64,000 nucleotides of DNA from Naegleria gruberi. Taxonomy: Eukaryota. A program made the translations under genes and the position numbers. Under the pieces are notes generated by a model. That model was not told where the DNA came from. It made no database searches and saw only the letters and a list, made by a program, of their open reading frames with translations. Location of the stretch: assembly GCA_000004985.1 (NCBI GenBank), contig GG738851.1, one strand, 5' to 3'. Position 1 is the first letter of the stretch. Each line of letters starts with the position of its first letter. This document shows positions 54,775 through 63,940 of the stretch, one piece after another.

Positions 54775-57700
54775 ATGCTCAAGTCCCAACTCTTAAAATC
54801 TGCCGGCAAGAATTCAACATCAGTCGCCAAGCAAGTATTTTCTGCCAAGTCGAAGAAGCAAACTGCTCAATTGATGCAAGGTTTGAACTCACAAAGAAAC
54901 TTGAGCAGTTCTTTTGTTACAAAGTCAACCCCATCCGACAGTTTTGCTTGGGTTGGTTCTAATTCTCAATATCTGGAAGAACTCGAACTTCAATGGAGAG
55001 CAAATCCATCAAGCGTACCAGTTGAATGGCAAACATATTTTGCTTCCCTTCCAGAAGTAGGATCATCAAGTGCTACTTTCCAAAGTGAATCATCTGGTTC
55101 CTCTAGCTTAAGTAGTCAAGCAGGTGCTCAAGGAGAAATTATTTCTCTCATTAGAGCCTTCCAAGTTTTTGGTCATCACGTAAGCAAATTAGACCCTTTG
55201 GGAAAGTATTCCGCTGATCTTGACTTCCAAGATATTCCTCAATTGGTTTGTATTTTGTTATTTAATTTAATAATTAATTTAAATAATTAAATTCATAACA
55301 ATAATTTAATGATGATGAAAATTTAACAATGGAATAATAGCATATTGAAAATTACCCACACCTCTGCAAGATGGACCCAAATACCCCAATTACTCTCTCC
55401 CAAGATTTGATCAAGGGTTTCCTCTCTTCATCAAATCCTCCACAAAATACACAATGGACATTAAAAACTTTGTTGGATAGACTCCAAGAAACATATTGCG
55501 GAACTATCGGATATGAATACATGCATATTAACAATAGAGATGTTTGCAATTGGTTAAGAGAAAGAATTGAAACAGCAACCAATGTAGATTTAACAGAAAA
55601 CGAAAAGAAAGTACTTTACGAAAGATTGACTTACAGTCATATGTTTGAAGATTATTTGGCAAACAAATTCCCAACAACAAAGAGATTTGGTTTGGAAGGT
55701 TGTGAATCATTGATTCCAGGTCTTAAGAGTATGATTGATACATCATCATCATTGGGTGTTGACAGTTTTGTTGTTGGTATGCCTCACAGAGGTCGTTTGA
55801 ATGTTTTGGCCAACGTTATGAGAAAGCCATTGGCTCAAATTTTCAGAGAATTCTTAGGAAAGACTGAAAACAAGTTGGGTTCCGGAGATGTTAAATATCA
55901 CTTGGGTACCTCAACAAAGCGTCACCTTCCTTTCACAAATAAGGAAGTTGAACTTTCACTTGTTCCTAATCCATCCCATCTTGAAGCTGTTAACCCAGTT
56001 GTTGAAGGAAAAGTTAAAGCTAAGCAAGTTCTTATGGGTGACAATAATAGAGAAAAAGTTTTACCAGTCTTACTTCACGGTGATGCTGCTTTTGCTGGAC
56101 AAGGTGTTATTTATGAAACTATGGGATTGAGTCAATTGGATGAATATGGAACTGGTGGTACTATTCACGTTGTTGTCAACAACCAAATCGGTTTCACTAC
56201 CAATCCAAGAAGTTCTAGATCTACTTCTTACTGTACAGATATCGCTAAATTCCTTAATGCTCCAGTTTTCCACGTCAATGCTGATGATCCAAATGCTGTT
56301 GTCAAGGTCTGTAAATTGGCTGCTGAATATAGACAACAATATCACGGAGATGTTGTCATTGATATTGTCTGTTATCGTAAGAGAGGTCACAATGAATTGG
56401 ATGAACCAATGTTCACTCAACCTCTCATGTATCAAGCTATTGCTAAACAAGAACCAGTTATTAGCAAGTATCGTAAACAACTTTTGAAGGAAGGCATTGT
56501 CAATGAAGAACACCTCAAGCAAGTTGACGAACAAGTTAAGAATGTTTTCGATGTTGAATTTGCTAGAGCTAAGACCGATGAAAAGTTGGATGTTACTGGT
56601 GAAGTTTGGTATTTGCAAGGAAGTAAGTGGGATAGAATGAAGACTCCACACGATTACTCTCCAATCAGATCTACTGGTATTCCAATGGAAGTTTTGAAGA
56701 CTCTTGGTAAACAAGTTTCTACTCTTCCAGAAAATGATAACTTTAAGCCACACAAGGGTATTGCTCGTGTCTATAATCAAAGATCTCAAATGATTGAATC
56801 TGGTGAAGGTTTGGATTGGGGTATGGGTGAAACTCTTGCTTATGCTACACTTTTGAATGAAGGTTATCATGTCAGAATCAGTGGTCAAGATGTTGAAAGA
56901 GGTACTTTCTCACACAGACATGCTGTTGTCACTGATCAAGAATCTGAAAAGAGATACATTCCACTCAAGACTATCTCAAATACTGCTCAATTTACTGTTG
57001 CTAACTCTAGTTTGAGTGAATTTGGTGTTCTTGGTTTCGAATACGGTTATTCTATGGAATCACCAAATCAACTCGTTATTTGGGAAGGTCAATTCGGTGA
57101 CTTTGCTAACGGTGCTTCAATTATCGTTGATCAATTCATTTCTTGTGCTGAACAAAAGTGGATGAGATCATCTGGTCTCACTCTTCTCCTTCCTCATGGT
57201 TATGAAGGTCAAGGTCCAGAACACAGTAACGCCAGAATGGAACGTTATTTGCAACTCTGTGACGAAGATGATGAAACTCTCCCAGAAAAGGATTCAAGCA
57301 AGACTCTCCAAATTCAAAAAGCTAACATGCAAGTTGTCAATTGTACCACCCCAGCCAATTTCTTCCACGTTTTGAGAAGACAATTGCACCGTGATTTCAG
57401 AAAGCCATTGGTTGTTTTCACACCTAAGAGTTTGCTCAGATTGAAGGAAGCTGCTTCATCCTTGTCTGAATTTGCTGCTGGTACTTCATTCAAGCAAGTT
57501 ATTGATGATGAAACTGGTGCCATCACTGATCCAAAGAAGGTCAAGAGAGTTGTTTTCTGTTCTGGTAAGGTTTATTATGATCTCCTCAGTGCTAGAACTA
57601 CACAAAATGTTGCTCTTGTTCGTGTTGAACAATTGGCTCCTTTCCCATTCCATAGAGTTATTGAAATCGCTGAAAAGTATCCAAATGCTGAATATGTTTG

Positions 57701-58215: not shown

Positions 58216-59729
58216 TTATTTAGAAAAGTCAAAATCATCAAAAGACTTGTTTTCATCCTTGCTAACACCAATAGCAAAACTGTCGTGAGCACGTTCGGAA
58301 GTAAATTCTGTGTCAACATATTTGGTATCGTTACCATCATGCAATTGTGGTTTGAATGGAGCAGAAATACCCTTACTATAGAGGTTATCCCAGTTAATAT
58401 TCTTAAAGAATGGATGTGCTCGGATTTCAGCTCCATCTGATGGGCCACCTCCTAAACGTTTATATTCTTCTCTGTCTAATAAACCTTTAAGAAGAGATTG
58501 TGCATCAGCTGGAACACTACTTGGGAATTTGAGTGGGGCCTTCAAAATTAATTCATACATTTCATTAATATTTTCAGAGTAGAATGGTGGCAAACCAACA
58601 ATCATTTCATACAAGAGAATACCGAGAGACCACCAATCGACAGCCTTACCGTGTCCTTGTCCCTTCAAGATTTCTGGAGCTAAATATTCAGGAGTACTAT
58701 TAATGTTAAAAATGTTTAAAATCATTTCAATCAACATACCCACAGAATGTATAAGTTGGAGTATTATTTCCCATAGATGTCTTGGCCAATCCAAAATCTG
58801 TTAAAACAGCATAACCATCACCATCAAGAACAACATTTTCAGGCTTCAAATCTCTGTAAATAATATCATTCTTGTGCAAATGTTCAATAGCCATAACAAT
58901 TTGAGCAGCATAGAATTTAGCACGTTCAACATCAAATTTAGTTTCTTCTCTCAAGTGGAAGAATAATTCACCACCTGGTAAATAATCTAATACTAAATAC
59001 AACTTTTCTTCAGTTTGGAAAGCATAATGCAAAGAAACAATGAATGGGTGATCAATACTTTGCAAAATTTTCTTTTCAGCAAGGGTATGTGACACCATGT
59101 TTTCCTTGATGATCATATCCTTTCTAAGAACTTTCATGGCATAGACTCTAGAAGCACCCTTTTGTTTAACCTTCATAACTTTACCGAATGAACCTCTTCC
59201 GACAACTAACCAAATAATTAAAAAACAAAGCTTTGTGTTTTTACATACCTGTAAGTAATTCAAAATCGTTCAAGGAAACCTTAACATCTGACGATTTGTT
59301 ACCAATAGTAATTTGTTCCAAAGATTTAGCCTTAAGAATTTCCTCCTTGAATTCTTCCAATCCTTCCTTATCAGATGATGGATTATAATTCATAGCTTTG
59401 TTCAATTCTTTCATCCAAACTTGGAACTCTGTTTCATTTTCCGCACTAATTTCATAAACTCTGGCCAAGTTTTTACCTCTAAGTTTAAAGCTCATAGGCT
59501 TTGTTTCATCAATTTCAACTTTAGCTCCTTGGATATTGATAAAACCTGTTGGCTTGAGCTCACCTTGTTTCTTGAAGTAGAAAAGAAGCTTTCCTCTCAA
59601 TTCAAACCATCTTCCTGTTATCATCATGGTGATCAATATTATTAAATTAAAATTTTAATACTTACTCTTGTAGGTTTTAATTTTACCTCCCTTCTTCTTT
59701 AAATATCCAGAGAAGTCTGGCTTTTCCAT
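58216..59729 (-). CDS. Akt/PKB-like AGC protein kinase with N-terminal PH domain; 4 exons
   Basis: Exon 1 ~59729-59666 (MEKPDFSGYLKKKGGKIKTYK). Intron ~51 nt (GTAAGT). Exon 2 ~59614-59249 (RWFELRGK.. PH domain). Intron 43 nt (GTATGT..GGTTAG). Exon 3 ~59205-58740 (VVGRGSFGKV..YRDLKPENV..TDFGLAK..TFCG). Intron 43 nt (GTATGT..TTAATAG). Exon 4 ~58696-58216 (TPEYLAPE..FPHF-like..FDDFDFSK, AGC C-terminal hydrophobic motif). Exon lengths sum to 459 codons. Confidence 0.85.
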
Positions 59730-60408
59730 AGGATTAACCTGTGTATACAAAATAGATCAATGATTTTGTTGTTTCCGTAAATAAAACCTCTCTTTTCCCT
59801 TGTCTACATACCTCCATTTTATTCTTCTTGTTGTTGTATAAATTGCTGTGGGGAGCAATACGAAATTTTTTTACAAAGTGCTGTGATGGTGATCTCTCTC
59901 TGAGCAACCTTCTTGAATACGTTGGACATCTCTGCTGAGGATGAGCATTTTTGGAAAAGAGTACCTTTAATACGAACAATGAAGGGTTGTAAAGGGATGT
60001 CATACACTTGCAACCAGACATCTTGCAAACTACAATTATTATTACATTGCCATTGATTGTTGTTGATTATCAAATGTTTTAAATTTGCCTTTCATTGTAT
60101 TATCCTTCAAGTTAGTTTGGAATTTTGTGTTTGAGGGAAGATACAAGCTGAGATAATTATAAATCTCTAAGGGCGATTGTTCATAATAAGGATATATTTG
60201 AACAAATAGACTCATATGTGGAGTTATGATTAAGGCAATGCAGTTGGAGGGTGCTCTTTATTCTGGAAGATTCAATCTCTAACTGCTGCTTGCTAAAGAG
60301 AAAAAATAGGAGAGTTTTTTATTAAGGCAAACAATAGACCTTGAATTCGCTCTCATGAACAATTGGTGTTTCGCATTAAGGGTGTTACTTCCCTCTCATG
60401 TGGAATAA

Positions 60409-61701
60409 TTAGACGGTTTTATAAGGATCAAATTCGATCGAGGTATTGGAGTTTCCGAAATATTGCTTGCTGTGGCTTTCAATCATTTTGGAAAGCATTT
60501 TGACACTGCCCATGATACCGGACTTGCTTATTGGTTGTAAGAAACTTTCATTATTCAAAATTCTTTCGGTTTGATACGAGTCGTCCTTCTTAAAAACTGG
60601 CAATGTTTCAATTTCCTCACTTTTCTCATGAACTTTTTTGGAATAATTGGACATGATAACTGGGAATAAAGACAAAAGTGAGAGGCAAATAAGGAATATG
60701 ATGGTTTTTGGTTGATAAATGTCATTCACACTTTTCAATTCTGAAAGAATTAATCCAGCATGAACAGTTATATAATTAAATGGAATCATTCCTATAAATA
60801 CAGAATATGTTTGTTCAGCAGCAGAAATACCAAGAACAGGTCCAGCAATATTTACAAACCAGTTTGGTGTCAGTGGAAATAATCTTAATGAAATTAAAAA
60901 CCAAACCATTTTAAAACCTCCTAGTTTTCTATTCCTATTCATTAAGGAAGATAGTTTTGAAATTTTTGTTCTGAACCATTCGAAACTCAATAGAAAATCC
61001 TTTCCACTAAAATACCACAATACATGACAAAGAACAGCTCCAATAGTATTTAAAACTGTGCAAATAAATGTTCCATAAAAAGTTCCCATCAAAGCACCAG
61101 ATATTATATTCAAAAATATTGTTCTGAATAGAAATACATATTTGTTAAATATGATGGAAATAAATTAGTAAAAATTAGCACACTTTCCACTTACCCTGGT
61201 ACACAACAAATTTGATTCTTTTGAAGGATCATTCCTAATATTTCATTATTAATTACTTACAAATAAATATAAACAACAAAAAAGGCAGAATAATTCAAAC
61301 GAATGCTTGTCAGCTTCCTCACTCTTGAGTATTTCATAATCCTTCTTAAGATCATCCAAAGTCCATACCATTTTAATATTTAGTTTTGAATGGAGTGGAA
61401 TATAAAAGTATAATACAAAACATAAATTCAAAATTGACACTAGTGGTATTAATAATAATCTCCGATAAGACTTTTTGTATTGTTTTGATGAAGAAATAAT
61501 TTCCTCCTCATCAAAATTGTTCTCCCTATGATTCATTGATGAATAATTTAGTGTCGGAACAAAATCTGTTGTTGTTAATTTATCATGGTGTAGCCTCTGA
61601 TTATTGTTGGTATTATTAAATTCTTCTTCCGATCCTCCTACCACATAATTATTGATTCGATGTGTTGTTGTCGTAGTATTCAAAGATGTTGGAAATTTCA
61701 T
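60409..61701 (-). CDS. TMEM41/Tvp38/DedA-family membrane protein; 3 exons including a 23-nt microexon
   Basis: Exon 1 (61701..~61261) ends ..CCLYLF at a GTAAGT donor. A 43-nt intron follows. Microexon ~61193-61217 (aatcaaatttgttgtgtaccagg = NQICCVPG) is followed by a GTAAGT donor and a ~69-nt intron. Exon 3 (~61123..60409) reads TIFLNIISGALMGTF...LRLFPLTPNWFVNIAGPVLGI. Joined, this gives LYLF-NQICCVPG-TIFLNIISGALMG, aligning with human TMEM41B [25 protein letters not shown]. Confidence 0.8.
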
Positions 61702-62174
61702 TTTTTATCAGTTGTCTTAACAAAATTTGTATTAGAGTTCATAAGGAACACTGAATCGTACAAATAACATTATCCATGGTCAACACTATCAAGTTAGCAT
61801 TCTTTGTTAATGAGAAACGGTCAAAGAGCTCGAAACAAGATCGATTGATTTCAAGGATTTGTGAATTTTTATGCTTCCTAGAGCAAGTCATCACCCAACT
61901 TTCAAGATAATGAATACACAAACGAATTGCAACATCATTGGATAAAAACATCTGAATGATTGCACAAACTAGATTGCCTTTCAAATTCACTTCATGTCGT
62001 TGTGTGATTGAAAAAAATGGAAATGATTATCATGTGAAATGCTTATTTAACCCTTACAATAGAATACCAATTTGATGATACTTTAGCTTTAATTATCACC
62101 TCTAACTATTACTTTTATACTAATAAATATATTCGCCATTAGTACTAAGCCTTAGTGAAACTTCATCATAAAAA

Positions 62175-63940
62175 ATGGATCCAATTAGCCAAGAAACTCA
62201 AGCAGAGATTTCTTCGGATGCTGTTGCTACTGATAATGTTACTATAAATGAGGAGCAGCCTCAACTTGTAGTGAGTGTTCCACCAACAATAACAATCAGT
62301 ACAGAGAATAACGATGTTGAGGTTATTAGTAACAACAATGAGCAAGGAAGCGTACCGAGTTCTCCAACGCTACTAGTAGAAGTCTCATCTTCGTCAAACA
62401 CTCCAACAATTTCAACTTCTGATGCTATGAACGTTTTGGTTGCAACTTCCACAGGCAACATGGCCTCAATTGCATCATCAATGACGAGACAACTAACAGA
62501 GAAAAGTATAGGTAAGATTTTTATTGAATTTGAAATCCTTAATCTTCTTTATCAGAGGAAGATTCAAATGAAGCAACTTGTGTGGATATGGAAACATCTA
62601 CATTCGTTGATGATTATTCATCTGGCGATGAAGATGATCAAAACAAAAAGAAAAAGAAAGATGATCCTAAAAAGTTTAACCTTGACGGAATTAATACAAT
62701 GAAAGGAATCATAATGGAAGAATGGAAAAAGTTTGGTTTTGCTGCTCAAACAAAACGAGATGCTGAAATGTGGGCACAAACACTTCAATTTCCTGGAGTT
62801 CCCGAAAGAGGAGAGGTTCTTAGAAGATTATTTTCTGTGTTTAGATGGGGTGGATTGTGTTTTAGACATAAGGCAATTGCATTTGATAAAAAGAAGAGTG
62901 ATGACGATTCAGATTTTGTTTGGAAAAATTGGTATGATGTTGGATGGCCTATTTGTACAGCTATTTCTCATGGTGGTAGAGTAATTATTCAATTACCTAA
63001 GAAAACAGGATCCGACAGAACATATGATTATTCATTTTGGAATTGGATCATTACAGGATCTAAAACAGGGGATGTTGCAAAGCATGTGACAACAGGAACA
63101 TCTGGAGACCATTGTATAAAGCGAGGAAAGATAATATTCAAGAGATTGAGTGCTACGCATGGTATTGATTTTGAAGAAAATGAGTTACCTCTCATGGATG
63201 GAACAAGGAAGGTATTAATTGAACAAAAAACCACAGGTTTCAGTTTGAGAGACACCAAAATGTTAAGATCAGTTGAATATACATTGAAACATCACAGACA
63301 TTGGGGAATGAATATTCCAATTGGTGGTGAAGGGCAAACCTTACTTACAGGAAGTAAATCTTATGCAAATGGATCCAATGGCCATTTATACATTTATCAC
63401 ATGGCACCAAAAACTGACTCTTATGGTGGTATTATGCTTGGGTTAGAAGGAAGCGAATATGGTAAATATGATATGTGTGGTGAATACCACGGTGTGAGTG
63501 CCAAGTCAAGTGCATTCTCACCCACACTCGGTTTCAAATGGCATTCCAAGGAACATCTAGATTTGACAACAGTGAAAGGCCCAGGTAAATATGATTGTAT
63601 GTTTGTGGATTTGTCATATGGTTGGGATTTTATTGTTGAAAAGTATGAAAACGAATGGAAGGATGATATGGTCAAGCAAACATCATTACCTAATCCAAAC
63701 CATCCACAGTTTACAGAAATTTCAACAAAACTCAATCTTTCTCCAAAATTTATTTCATCCATTGTAAATTTGAGAAACACTGAGAGAGGAAGAAAATGGA
63801 AATCACTTGTAGACAAACGATTAGAAAAGACAAGTAATAATTTTAAGGACAAAATTACAATATCAAAGAAGAAAACCAAGTTTTACAATTTTACAACAAC
63901 CCGAGCAGCAATCTCCTTCGCCAATTTATACGGGCAATAA
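62175..63940 (+). CDS. Protein with Ser/Thr-rich N-terminus and a ~400-aa C-terminal domain of unknown family (possible toxin/enzyme-like fold); 2 exons
   Basis: Exon 1 (62175..~62510, ..TEKSI) ends at a GTAAGA donor. A ~50-nt intron ends TTTATCAG (~62561). Exon 2 is EEDSNEATCVDMETSTFVDDY... through the stop at 63940. The C-terminal domain is Gly/His/Trp/Cys-rich (..WYDVGWPICTAISHGGRVIIQLP.., ..HRHWGMNIPIGGEGQ.., ..HMAPKTDSYGGIMLGLEGSEYGKYDMCGEYHG..). Confidence 0.55.

Follow-up and report, generated by a model that had tools for sequence, protein, structure and literature searches.

What is encoded at positions 62175-63940 of a 64,000-nucleotide stretch of Naegleria gruberi contig GG738851.1 (the whole of which is referred to here as the window), and what might the product do for the amoeba? 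The initial annotation of this DNA had reported a 452-aa protein with a conserved-looking C-terminal domain that could not be placed in any family, and had proposed either a horizontally acquired domain or a lineage-specific family as its source. The open reading frame itself and all four peptide blocks quoted from it were recovered in place. Taken as a whole, the locus is likely to represent a native gene for a probably catalytic, intracellular protein of the Ntox11 family.

Gene model and genomic setting

The 452 residues described earlier correspond to a mechanical GTG-to-stop ORF (62582..63940), while the real product consists of 573 aa and is encoded by two exons. Exon 1 (62175..62511, plus strand) begins with Met1, breaks off after the first position of codon 113 and encodes an acidic, Ser/Thr-rich and poorly conserved N-terminal region, and exon 2 (62556..63940, plus strand) includes the TAA stop codon at 63938-63940. 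The two exons lie in different frames and are separated by a 44-nt intron with GT..AG borders (GTAAGA...TATCAG; 62512..62555, plus strand), the removal of which restores the frame; the unspliced ORF starting from the ATG at 62175 stops at 62702. The spliced coding sequence of 1722 nt yields a 573-aa product identical over its full length (100%) to an NCBI/UniProt entry named 'predicted protein [Naegleria gruberi]', and tblastn placed aa 1-112 of this NCBI protein at 62175-62510 and aa 113-573 in exon 2, in both cases with 100% identity. The N. fowleri orthologue can be aligned from just 5' of the exon junction onwards and across it, and the N-termini of the two proteins are alike in length. 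That the locus is a genuine spliced N. gruberi gene is, with regard to both its identity and its family membership, almost certain.

The gene on the plus strand is arranged head-to-head with a divergent multi-exon gene on the minus strand encoding a VTT-PH-protein-kinase, and a gene for the 2-oxoglutarate dehydrogenase E1 component (OGDH) is located farther upstream. From this head-to-head layout, the intergenic region between the end of the VTT-PH-kinase ORF (61701) and the Ntox11 ATG (62175), which comprises positions 61702..62174, is presumed to serve as promoter. No further Ntox11 copy was found within the 64-kb window.

Domain assignment and conserved residues

The domain that the initial annotation could not assign turned out to belong to a curated family, Pfam PF15521 (Ntox11, 'Novel toxin 11'). 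The match covers aa 200-488 (62816..63682, plus strand) and profile positions 9-280 of 294, with E = 5.1e-36 and a score of 125 bits relative to a gathering cutoff of 25 bits. Membership in PF15521 is borne out by this score, by the family motifs and by the arrangement of an alpha/beta part followed by a beta-rich part, and both the near full-length HMM match and this layout are shared with the Ntox11 archetypes (PMC3482391). Ntox11 is the sole significant Pfam domain in the 573-aa protein, and searches of NCBIfam and PADLOC with the same protein returned no match. A weak Pfam match to the cupin/ectoine synthase family (PF06339), in which a score above the gathering threshold and a double-stranded beta-helix would be expected, was not supported. 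The initial annotation had also reasoned that a match to a common housekeeping family would speak against its reading; none was encountered, Ntox11 being a curated but functionally uncharacterised family.

The definition of Ntox11 goes back to the catalogue of polymorphic toxins by Zhang, de Souza, Anantharaman, Iyer & Aravind (2012; PMC3482391), in which its phyletic pattern comprised several bacterial phyla with PVC-type secretion as well as 'eukaryotes: Trichoplax, Naegleria', and in which it was listed without an associated immunity protein. The occurrence of Ntox11 in Naegleria was thus published in 2012, and since both the protein and its Pfam annotation are public in NCBI/UniProt, the classification as such is already known.

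In an HMM alignment of 164 representatives of the family, the conserved residues include five short blocks, all of them on the plus strand in N. gruberi. The first, S-H251-G-G-R254 (62966..62980), is the 'GxR' motif of Zhang et al., in which H251, G252 and R254 are kept in 97-99% of 151 representatives. It is followed by the 'RxxxoH' motif R309-L-S-A-T313-H314 (63143..63160; R309 96%, T313 90%, H314 98%), of which R309 and H314 are invariant in family alignment A1, and by H-H-R-H361-W-G-M-N365 (63290..63313; H361 87%, G363 88%, N365 89%), which contains a strand at 361-365 in the predicted structure. The remaining two are the strand G388-H389-L-Y391-I-Y393 in the 'GxxH' region (63380..63397; G385 100%, G388 99%, H389 97%, Y391 96%) and the 'GxE' motif G408-L-E410-G-S412-E (63440..63457; G408 95%, E410 99%, S412 83%). 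The family motif residues H361, G385..G388-H389, G408-x-E410, H424 and D464 are all found in the N. gruberi protein. Polar residues kept in at least 85% of the representatives are D181, W185, H251, R254, W276, R309, T313, H314, E335, H361, N365, H389, Y391, E410, H424, K440 and D464, and the N. gruberi protein retains every family-wide conserved polar residue, including S412 (83%). As judged from sequence, this conserved set would be compatible with the binding of a metal by His, Glu and Asp and of a phosphate or carboxylate group by Arg, Lys and Tyr.

These data bear directly on the suggestion of catalytic Cys/His residues and of a toxin-type globular domain. The Ntox11 match and the conserved residues support a conserved globular domain shared with bacteria, and a catalytic role of the conserved His residues is plausible. 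However, no Cys is conserved family-wide in the same alignment, and C246 is replaced by Ala in most members, which makes a Cys/His pair unlikely and deprives the reported richness in Cys of its value as a sign of conservation.

Protein regions and predicted structure

The N-terminal region, from aa 1 to about 149, is acidic, Ser/Thr-rich and disordered; in accordance with the earlier description, aa 1-139 contain 17% Ser and 12% Thr, with a net charge of -23. Neither a signal peptide nor a transmembrane segment was detected by Kyte-Doolittle hydropathy analysis (best 19-residue mean 0.95), the N-terminus being hydrophilic. O-glycosylation of this region as a secreted, mucin-like N-terminus is therefore unlikely, and the absence of a hydrophobic N-terminus or transmembrane segment points to a cytoplasmic location. 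At the opposite end, aa 506-573 (63734..63937, plus strand) form a basic tail with a net charge of +12, for which a helical structure is predicted with low confidence. The remark 'Naegleria possibly secreted' in the 2012 catalogue (PMC3482391) is at odds with a cytoplasmic reading of the N. gruberi copy.

An AlphaFold2 model of aa 140-573, calculated from a 29-sequence alignment, reached a pLDDT of 84 and a pTM of 0.81. A second model, trimmed to the folded core at aa 150-505 (62666..63733, plus strand), was very confident (pLDDT 91.4, pTM 0.92). It shows three long helices at the N-terminal side, after which the chain becomes beta-rich and mainly antiparallel, with DSSP assigning helices within 155-210 and strands at 254-259, 314-324, 330-337, 361-365, 389-395, 403-410 and 461-464. 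The H251-G-G-R254 motif is positioned at the start of strand 254-259 in this model. Conserved positions alternate along the strands (361/363/365, 389/391/393 and 408/410/412), and therefore their side chains should line one face of the sheet, a clustering deduced from strand periodicity. We infer that such an alternating arrangement of conserved residues is the one expected of an enzyme active site.

The predicted fold is without a solved relative as far as searches of the PDB reach. Foldseek comparison of the full model with the whole PDB gave nothing significant (best E = 0.55, TM <= 0.13), phmmer with the full-length protein against PDB sequences gave a chance match only (E = 0.44), and the family profile built from alignment A1 produced 0 matches to PDB sequences at E <= 10. 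These results agree with the description of Ntox11 as 'structurally uncharacterized' in the 2024 Legionella effector atlas (PMC11696984). Helix-grip proteins of the SRPBCC/START type recur among the sub-threshold structure matches, which are not significant and lend no support to an assignment.

Distribution and domain architectures of the family

An exhaustive profile search for Ntox11 among 1.84 billion cluster representatives, each standing for a 50%-identity cluster, retrieved 1004 representatives at E <= 1e-3, 651 at E <= 1e-10 and 227 at E <= 1e-30. The named eukaryotic members are all heterolobosean and derive from N. fowleri, N. lovaniensis, Willaertia magna (two sequences), Percolomonas and Acrasis kona (two sequences). 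The orthologues from N. fowleri and Willaertia share 67% (in the aligned core) and 50% identity, respectively, with the N. gruberi protein and, together with the size of the family, confirm that the domain is conserved far beyond chance. Relatives are also present in bacteria, among them Acetobacteraceae/Roseomonas, Pararhodobacter, Planctomycetes, Myxococcales, Chlorobiota, Desulfobacterales, Nitrospirales and several filamentous cyanobacteria. Coxiellaceae and Rickettsiales, both of which live inside cells, carry Ntox11 as well, and on one contig from the Coxiellaceae its gene comes after a gene for an ankyrin-repeat protein. Viral contigs and phage records contained no Ntox11 relative, and plasmids contained essentially none, apart from a single weak match on a Streptomyces replicon.

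Most members are stand-alone proteins, and one bacterial copy resides among housekeeping genes. In Symploca, the gene for a protein combining eCIS_core and Ntox11 has as neighbours those for another eCIS_core protein, for an AAA ATPase, for Pvc16 and for the sheath, which makes this a classical eCIS locus, and an eCIS_core+Ntox11 fusion was found in Limnospira too. Giant proteins of Sorangium contain four to six complete Ntox11 modules each. When the architectures of the best ~150 of the ~1000 family representatives were inspected, fusion of Ntox11 to PLD was found twice, in one case on a bacterial contig with a weak TssG-like match ~2 kb upstream, and fusion to two FYVE fingers was also found twice, one of these proteins being encoded on a bacterial contig that contains a TacA/GNAT toxin-antitoxin pair as well. 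The same set included three DEP+Ntox11 proteins, all in eukaryote-like sequences, and one protein with an anthrax-LF-type domain.

A distant relative of the domain has been reported from Legionella. The N-terminal 'cryptic' domain of the Legionella pneumophila effector VpdC/Lpg1426 was reported to have N. fowleri FDP41_009687, the orthologue of the gene studied here, as its closest homologue, with a sequence similarity of 16.2% (PMC11696984). This domain displays a conserved groove of Arg, Glu and Tyr residues, and Arg-to-Glu mutants were less toxic to yeast (PMC11696984). In VpdC, the domain is joined to a patatin phospholipase, and the C-terminus of the effector binds ubiquitin (PMC11696984; PMC9860323); the N. 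gruberi protein lacks both parts, and Pfam gave no patatin match in it.

Probable activity and site of action

The native two-exon gene would give rise to a 573-aa cytoplasmic protein in which a disordered N-terminus precedes an Ntox11 core of ~355 aa and a basic tail. The core is full-length and motif-complete, with a putative site to which some four His, two Arg, two Glu and one Tyr would contribute. Because this conserved site is intact and because the domain occupies the terminal 'toxin' position in bacterial cargo proteins, the N. gruberi protein is, as far as its sequence allows a judgment, probably an active intracellular enzyme.

The site of action is a matter of more speculative reasoning, in which the fusions point weakly to membranes inside the eukaryotic cell, with the head group of a phospholipid or phosphoinositide, or else a membrane-bound protein, as the target. 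Such an action is suggested by the partners of the domain, which are either phospholipases (PLD, and patatin in VpdC) or modules that target membranes and phosphoinositides (FYVE, DEP), by its carriers, among which are obligate intracellular bacteria and eCIS systems that lack immunity genes, and by the basic tail of the Naegleria protein. It is possible, by analogy with these proteins, that the enzyme acts in this way, and the proposal draws on a handful of fusions among the ~150 architectures inspected of ~1000 representatives. In Naegleria, the protein might accordingly serve the endomembrane or signalling biology of the amoeba itself and would not be a secreted toxin. A more far-reaching version, which we put forward still more tentatively, is that Ntox11 represents a new enzyme fold with undescribed chemistry, for example a modification of phosphoesters or lipid head groups based on His, Glu and Arg, which bacteria would inject for endomembrane remodelling and which heterolobosean amoebae, including N. 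fowleri, would have domesticated long ago as a multi-paralogue family for the control of endomembranes or signalling.

The activity is of interest beyond this locus, as the highly conserved His/Arg/Glu site is common to roughly a thousand 50%-identity clusters, and the family extends from eCIS cargo and obligate intracellular bacteria to a Legionella effector and an old Naegleria gene family with a member in the genome of N. fowleri. Solving it would annotate many effectors together and could expose biology shared by amoebae and bacteria. What is new here is modest and consists of a high-confidence model without a PDB relative, the mapping of candidate catalytic residues on the N. gruberi gene, the fusions with FYVE, DEP and PLD, the conserved synteny and the multi-paralogue heterolobosean clade.

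Alternative functions

Among the alternatives, the one that survives best, although we consider it rather unlikely, is that Ntox11 is a nuclease, more precisely an RNase, which Naegleria would use for RNA turnover, in stress response, or to defend itself when bacteria or viruses have entered the cell. In the 2012 catalogue, a table heading suggests an RNase with uncertain metal dependence, nucleases predominate in polymorphic toxins (PMC3482391), and several invariant His residues together with Arg and Glu would fit phosphodiester cleavage of an RNase A-like or metal-dependent type. However, the placement in the catalogue amounts to a prior, as its authors call the catalysis of the remaining Ntox domains unclear (PMC3482391), and no immunity protein is associated with the domain. 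Moreover, no fusion with a nucleic-acid-binding domain was present among the best ~150 of ~1000 representatives, where the partners were PLD, FYVE, DEP, eCIS_core and the anthrax LF-type domain, and the PDB searches revealed no structural likeness to any solved nuclease.

It is considerably less probable that Naegleria employs the protein as an offensive toxin, secreted or delivered in order to kill host cells or the bacteria on which it preys. The name of the family, its bacterial use as injected cargo and the 2012 remark on secretion might suggest such a role, as might the fact that N. fowleri, which owns an orthologue, is a pathogen. Bacterial Ntox11 archetypes are C-terminal cargo behind a PVC-metallopeptidase/eCIS_core in eCIS loci. 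In contrast, the Pfam search of the N. gruberi protein found no releasing peptidase and no trafficking domain, be it eCIS_core, RHS or another of the kind that characterizes polymorphic and eCIS (PVC) toxins, and the gene is located on a eukaryotic chromosome, contains an intron, and encodes eukaryote-style disordered flanks around the domain. Neither an apparatus locus nor an adjacent immunity gene accompanies it, the neighbours being eukaryotic genes in both N. gruberi and N. fowleri. Likewise, the export signal expected of a secreted eukaryotic toxin was not seen in the hydropathy profile, in which the protein starts with a long, acidic and disordered N-terminus. Willaertia, Percolomonas and Acrasis, which are free-living and not pathogenic, have also kept the family, and related copies are fused to DEP, an intracellular signalling module. 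A role as a secreted toxin in Naegleria is hence unlikely, and an intracellular enzyme remains the preferred reading.

Slightly less probable again is a domain without catalysis that serves for binding or as a scaffold, for example with a helix-grip-like fold for a ligand or lipid, in which the conserved residues would have a role in binding. It could be prompted by the SRPBCC/START-type binders that were the best of the non-significant structure matches.

Evolutionary origin of the gene

The arguments for a native gene come from composition, gene structure, synteny and phylogeny. The initial annotation had named the gene as a candidate for horizontal transfer; its GC3 of 0.265 compared with 0.26-0.30 in the neighbouring genes provides no compositional signal of this kind, and its GC content matches that of the neighbours as well. 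The gene order OGDH / VTT-PH-kinase (minus strand) / Ntox11 (plus strand) is common to N. gruberi and N. fowleri. In a neighbour-joining tree, which was crude in that it was midpoint-rooted and carried no bootstrap support, all named heterolobosean sequences and the DEP-fused sequences came together in a single clade, within which three or more groups of paralogues could be told apart. The neighbour-like GC3, the intron, the synteny with N. fowleri and the heterolobosean clade together indicate native status, and in Heterolobosea Ntox11 thus appears, from sequence comparison, to be an old, vertically inherited multi-paralogue family.

That the gene came recently from a bacterium, or that the assembly is contaminated with bacterial DNA, could be imagined from the abundance of the domain in bacteria, including the amoeba-associated Coxiellaceae and Rickettsiales, but is effectively refuted by the spliceosomal-type intron required to hold the frame, by the GC3, synteny and clade just described, by the position of the gene within a 693-kb N. 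gruberi scaffold with eukaryotic genes around it, and by an identity of 28% to each of P0024 and P0022, two relatives whose bacterial origin was established from gene context or from a related genome locus.

The dictyostelid source assumed in the initial annotation was not upheld, as the target and four other ORFs of the window are exact matches to proteins of Naegleria gruberi NEG-M, a member of the Heterolobosea. A step in GC3 of the long ORFs at ~42 kb, from 0.07-0.22 in the first 42 kb of the window to 0.26-0.30 between 42 and 64 kb, had raised the suspicion that the window is chimeric; this was ruled out, since the ORFs within 1-42 kb correspond exactly to N. gruberi proteins recorded on a contig of 693,645 bp, a length identical to that of the contig recorded for the Ntox11 protein. 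It may have been the low GC3 of the first ~42 kb that led the initial annotation towards Dictyostelium.

The Ntox11 gene and its neighbour in Naegleria

The Ntox11 gene of N. gruberi (62175-63940, plus strand) lies head-to-head with a divergent multi-exon gene on the minus strand (58216-61701), which encodes PH and protein kinase domains alongside a VTT (DedA/TMEM41-like) membrane domain, an unusual, lipid-related architecture. The same head-to-head pairing was found in N. fowleri, where the counterpart of the VTT-PH-kinase gene is annotated as a single 922-aa protein. The two N. gruberi genes have a 473-bp intergenic region in common, through which they might possibly be co-regulated. A P4-ATPase flippase gene was also observed near the N. 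fowleri pair.

The N. fowleri Ntox11 orthologue (locus L031, 10001-11656) is annotated without an intron, its 1656 nt corresponding to 551 codons plus stop, whereas the reading frame of the N. gruberi gene requires a 44-nt intron (62512-62555). This difference indicates that an intron was gained or lost between the two species.

Relatives of Ntox11 outside Naegleria

In Acrasis kona, a 438-aa relative (P0041, KAL0488496.1) carries the source name 'polyketide synthase'. The Ntox11 profile match spans residues 43-414, nearly the whole protein, and the name is probably a misannotation.

Among the bacterial relatives, the giant myxobacterial proteins P0038 (Sorangium sp. So ce362, 7107 aa), P0053 and P0060 each contain four to six complete Ntox11 modules, which are spaced at roughly 560-1900 residues. 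Two further Ntox11 proteins, P0131 and P0138, bear two C-terminal FYVE zinc fingers. The gene for P0131 is located on a bacterial-looking contig (L029, 1944-3467) and is adjoined by a TacA/GNAT toxin-antitoxin pair. Since FYVE is a eukaryote-type PI3P-binding module, its presence on a bacterial protein suggests that P0131 is a host-directed effector. Some bacterial Ntox11 copies do not have the look of toxin cargo, as exemplified by a stand-alone gene (L001, 8944-10227) residing in a housekeeping neighbourhood with chorismate synthase, tyrosyl-tRNA synthetase and AnmK, in which genes for secretion or immunity are absent.

Codon composition of the window

The GC content at third codon positions (GC3) of long ORFs ranged from 0.07 to 0.22 in the first ~42 kb of the window (1-42000), compared to 0.26-0.30 in the last ~22 kb (42000-64000). 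A chimeric window was ruled out, since ORFs from 1-42 kb correspond to exact N. gruberi proteins and are located on a 693,645-bp contig, a length that is also recorded for the contig of the protein encoded at 62-64 kb. The difference in GC3 represents a marked shift in codon composition inside one scaffold. A 279-codon open frame on the minus strand (56073-56909) runs antisense to the gene for 2-oxoglutarate dehydrogenase E1. Its GC3 of 0.53 is very atypical, and this antisense frame is in all likelihood spurious.
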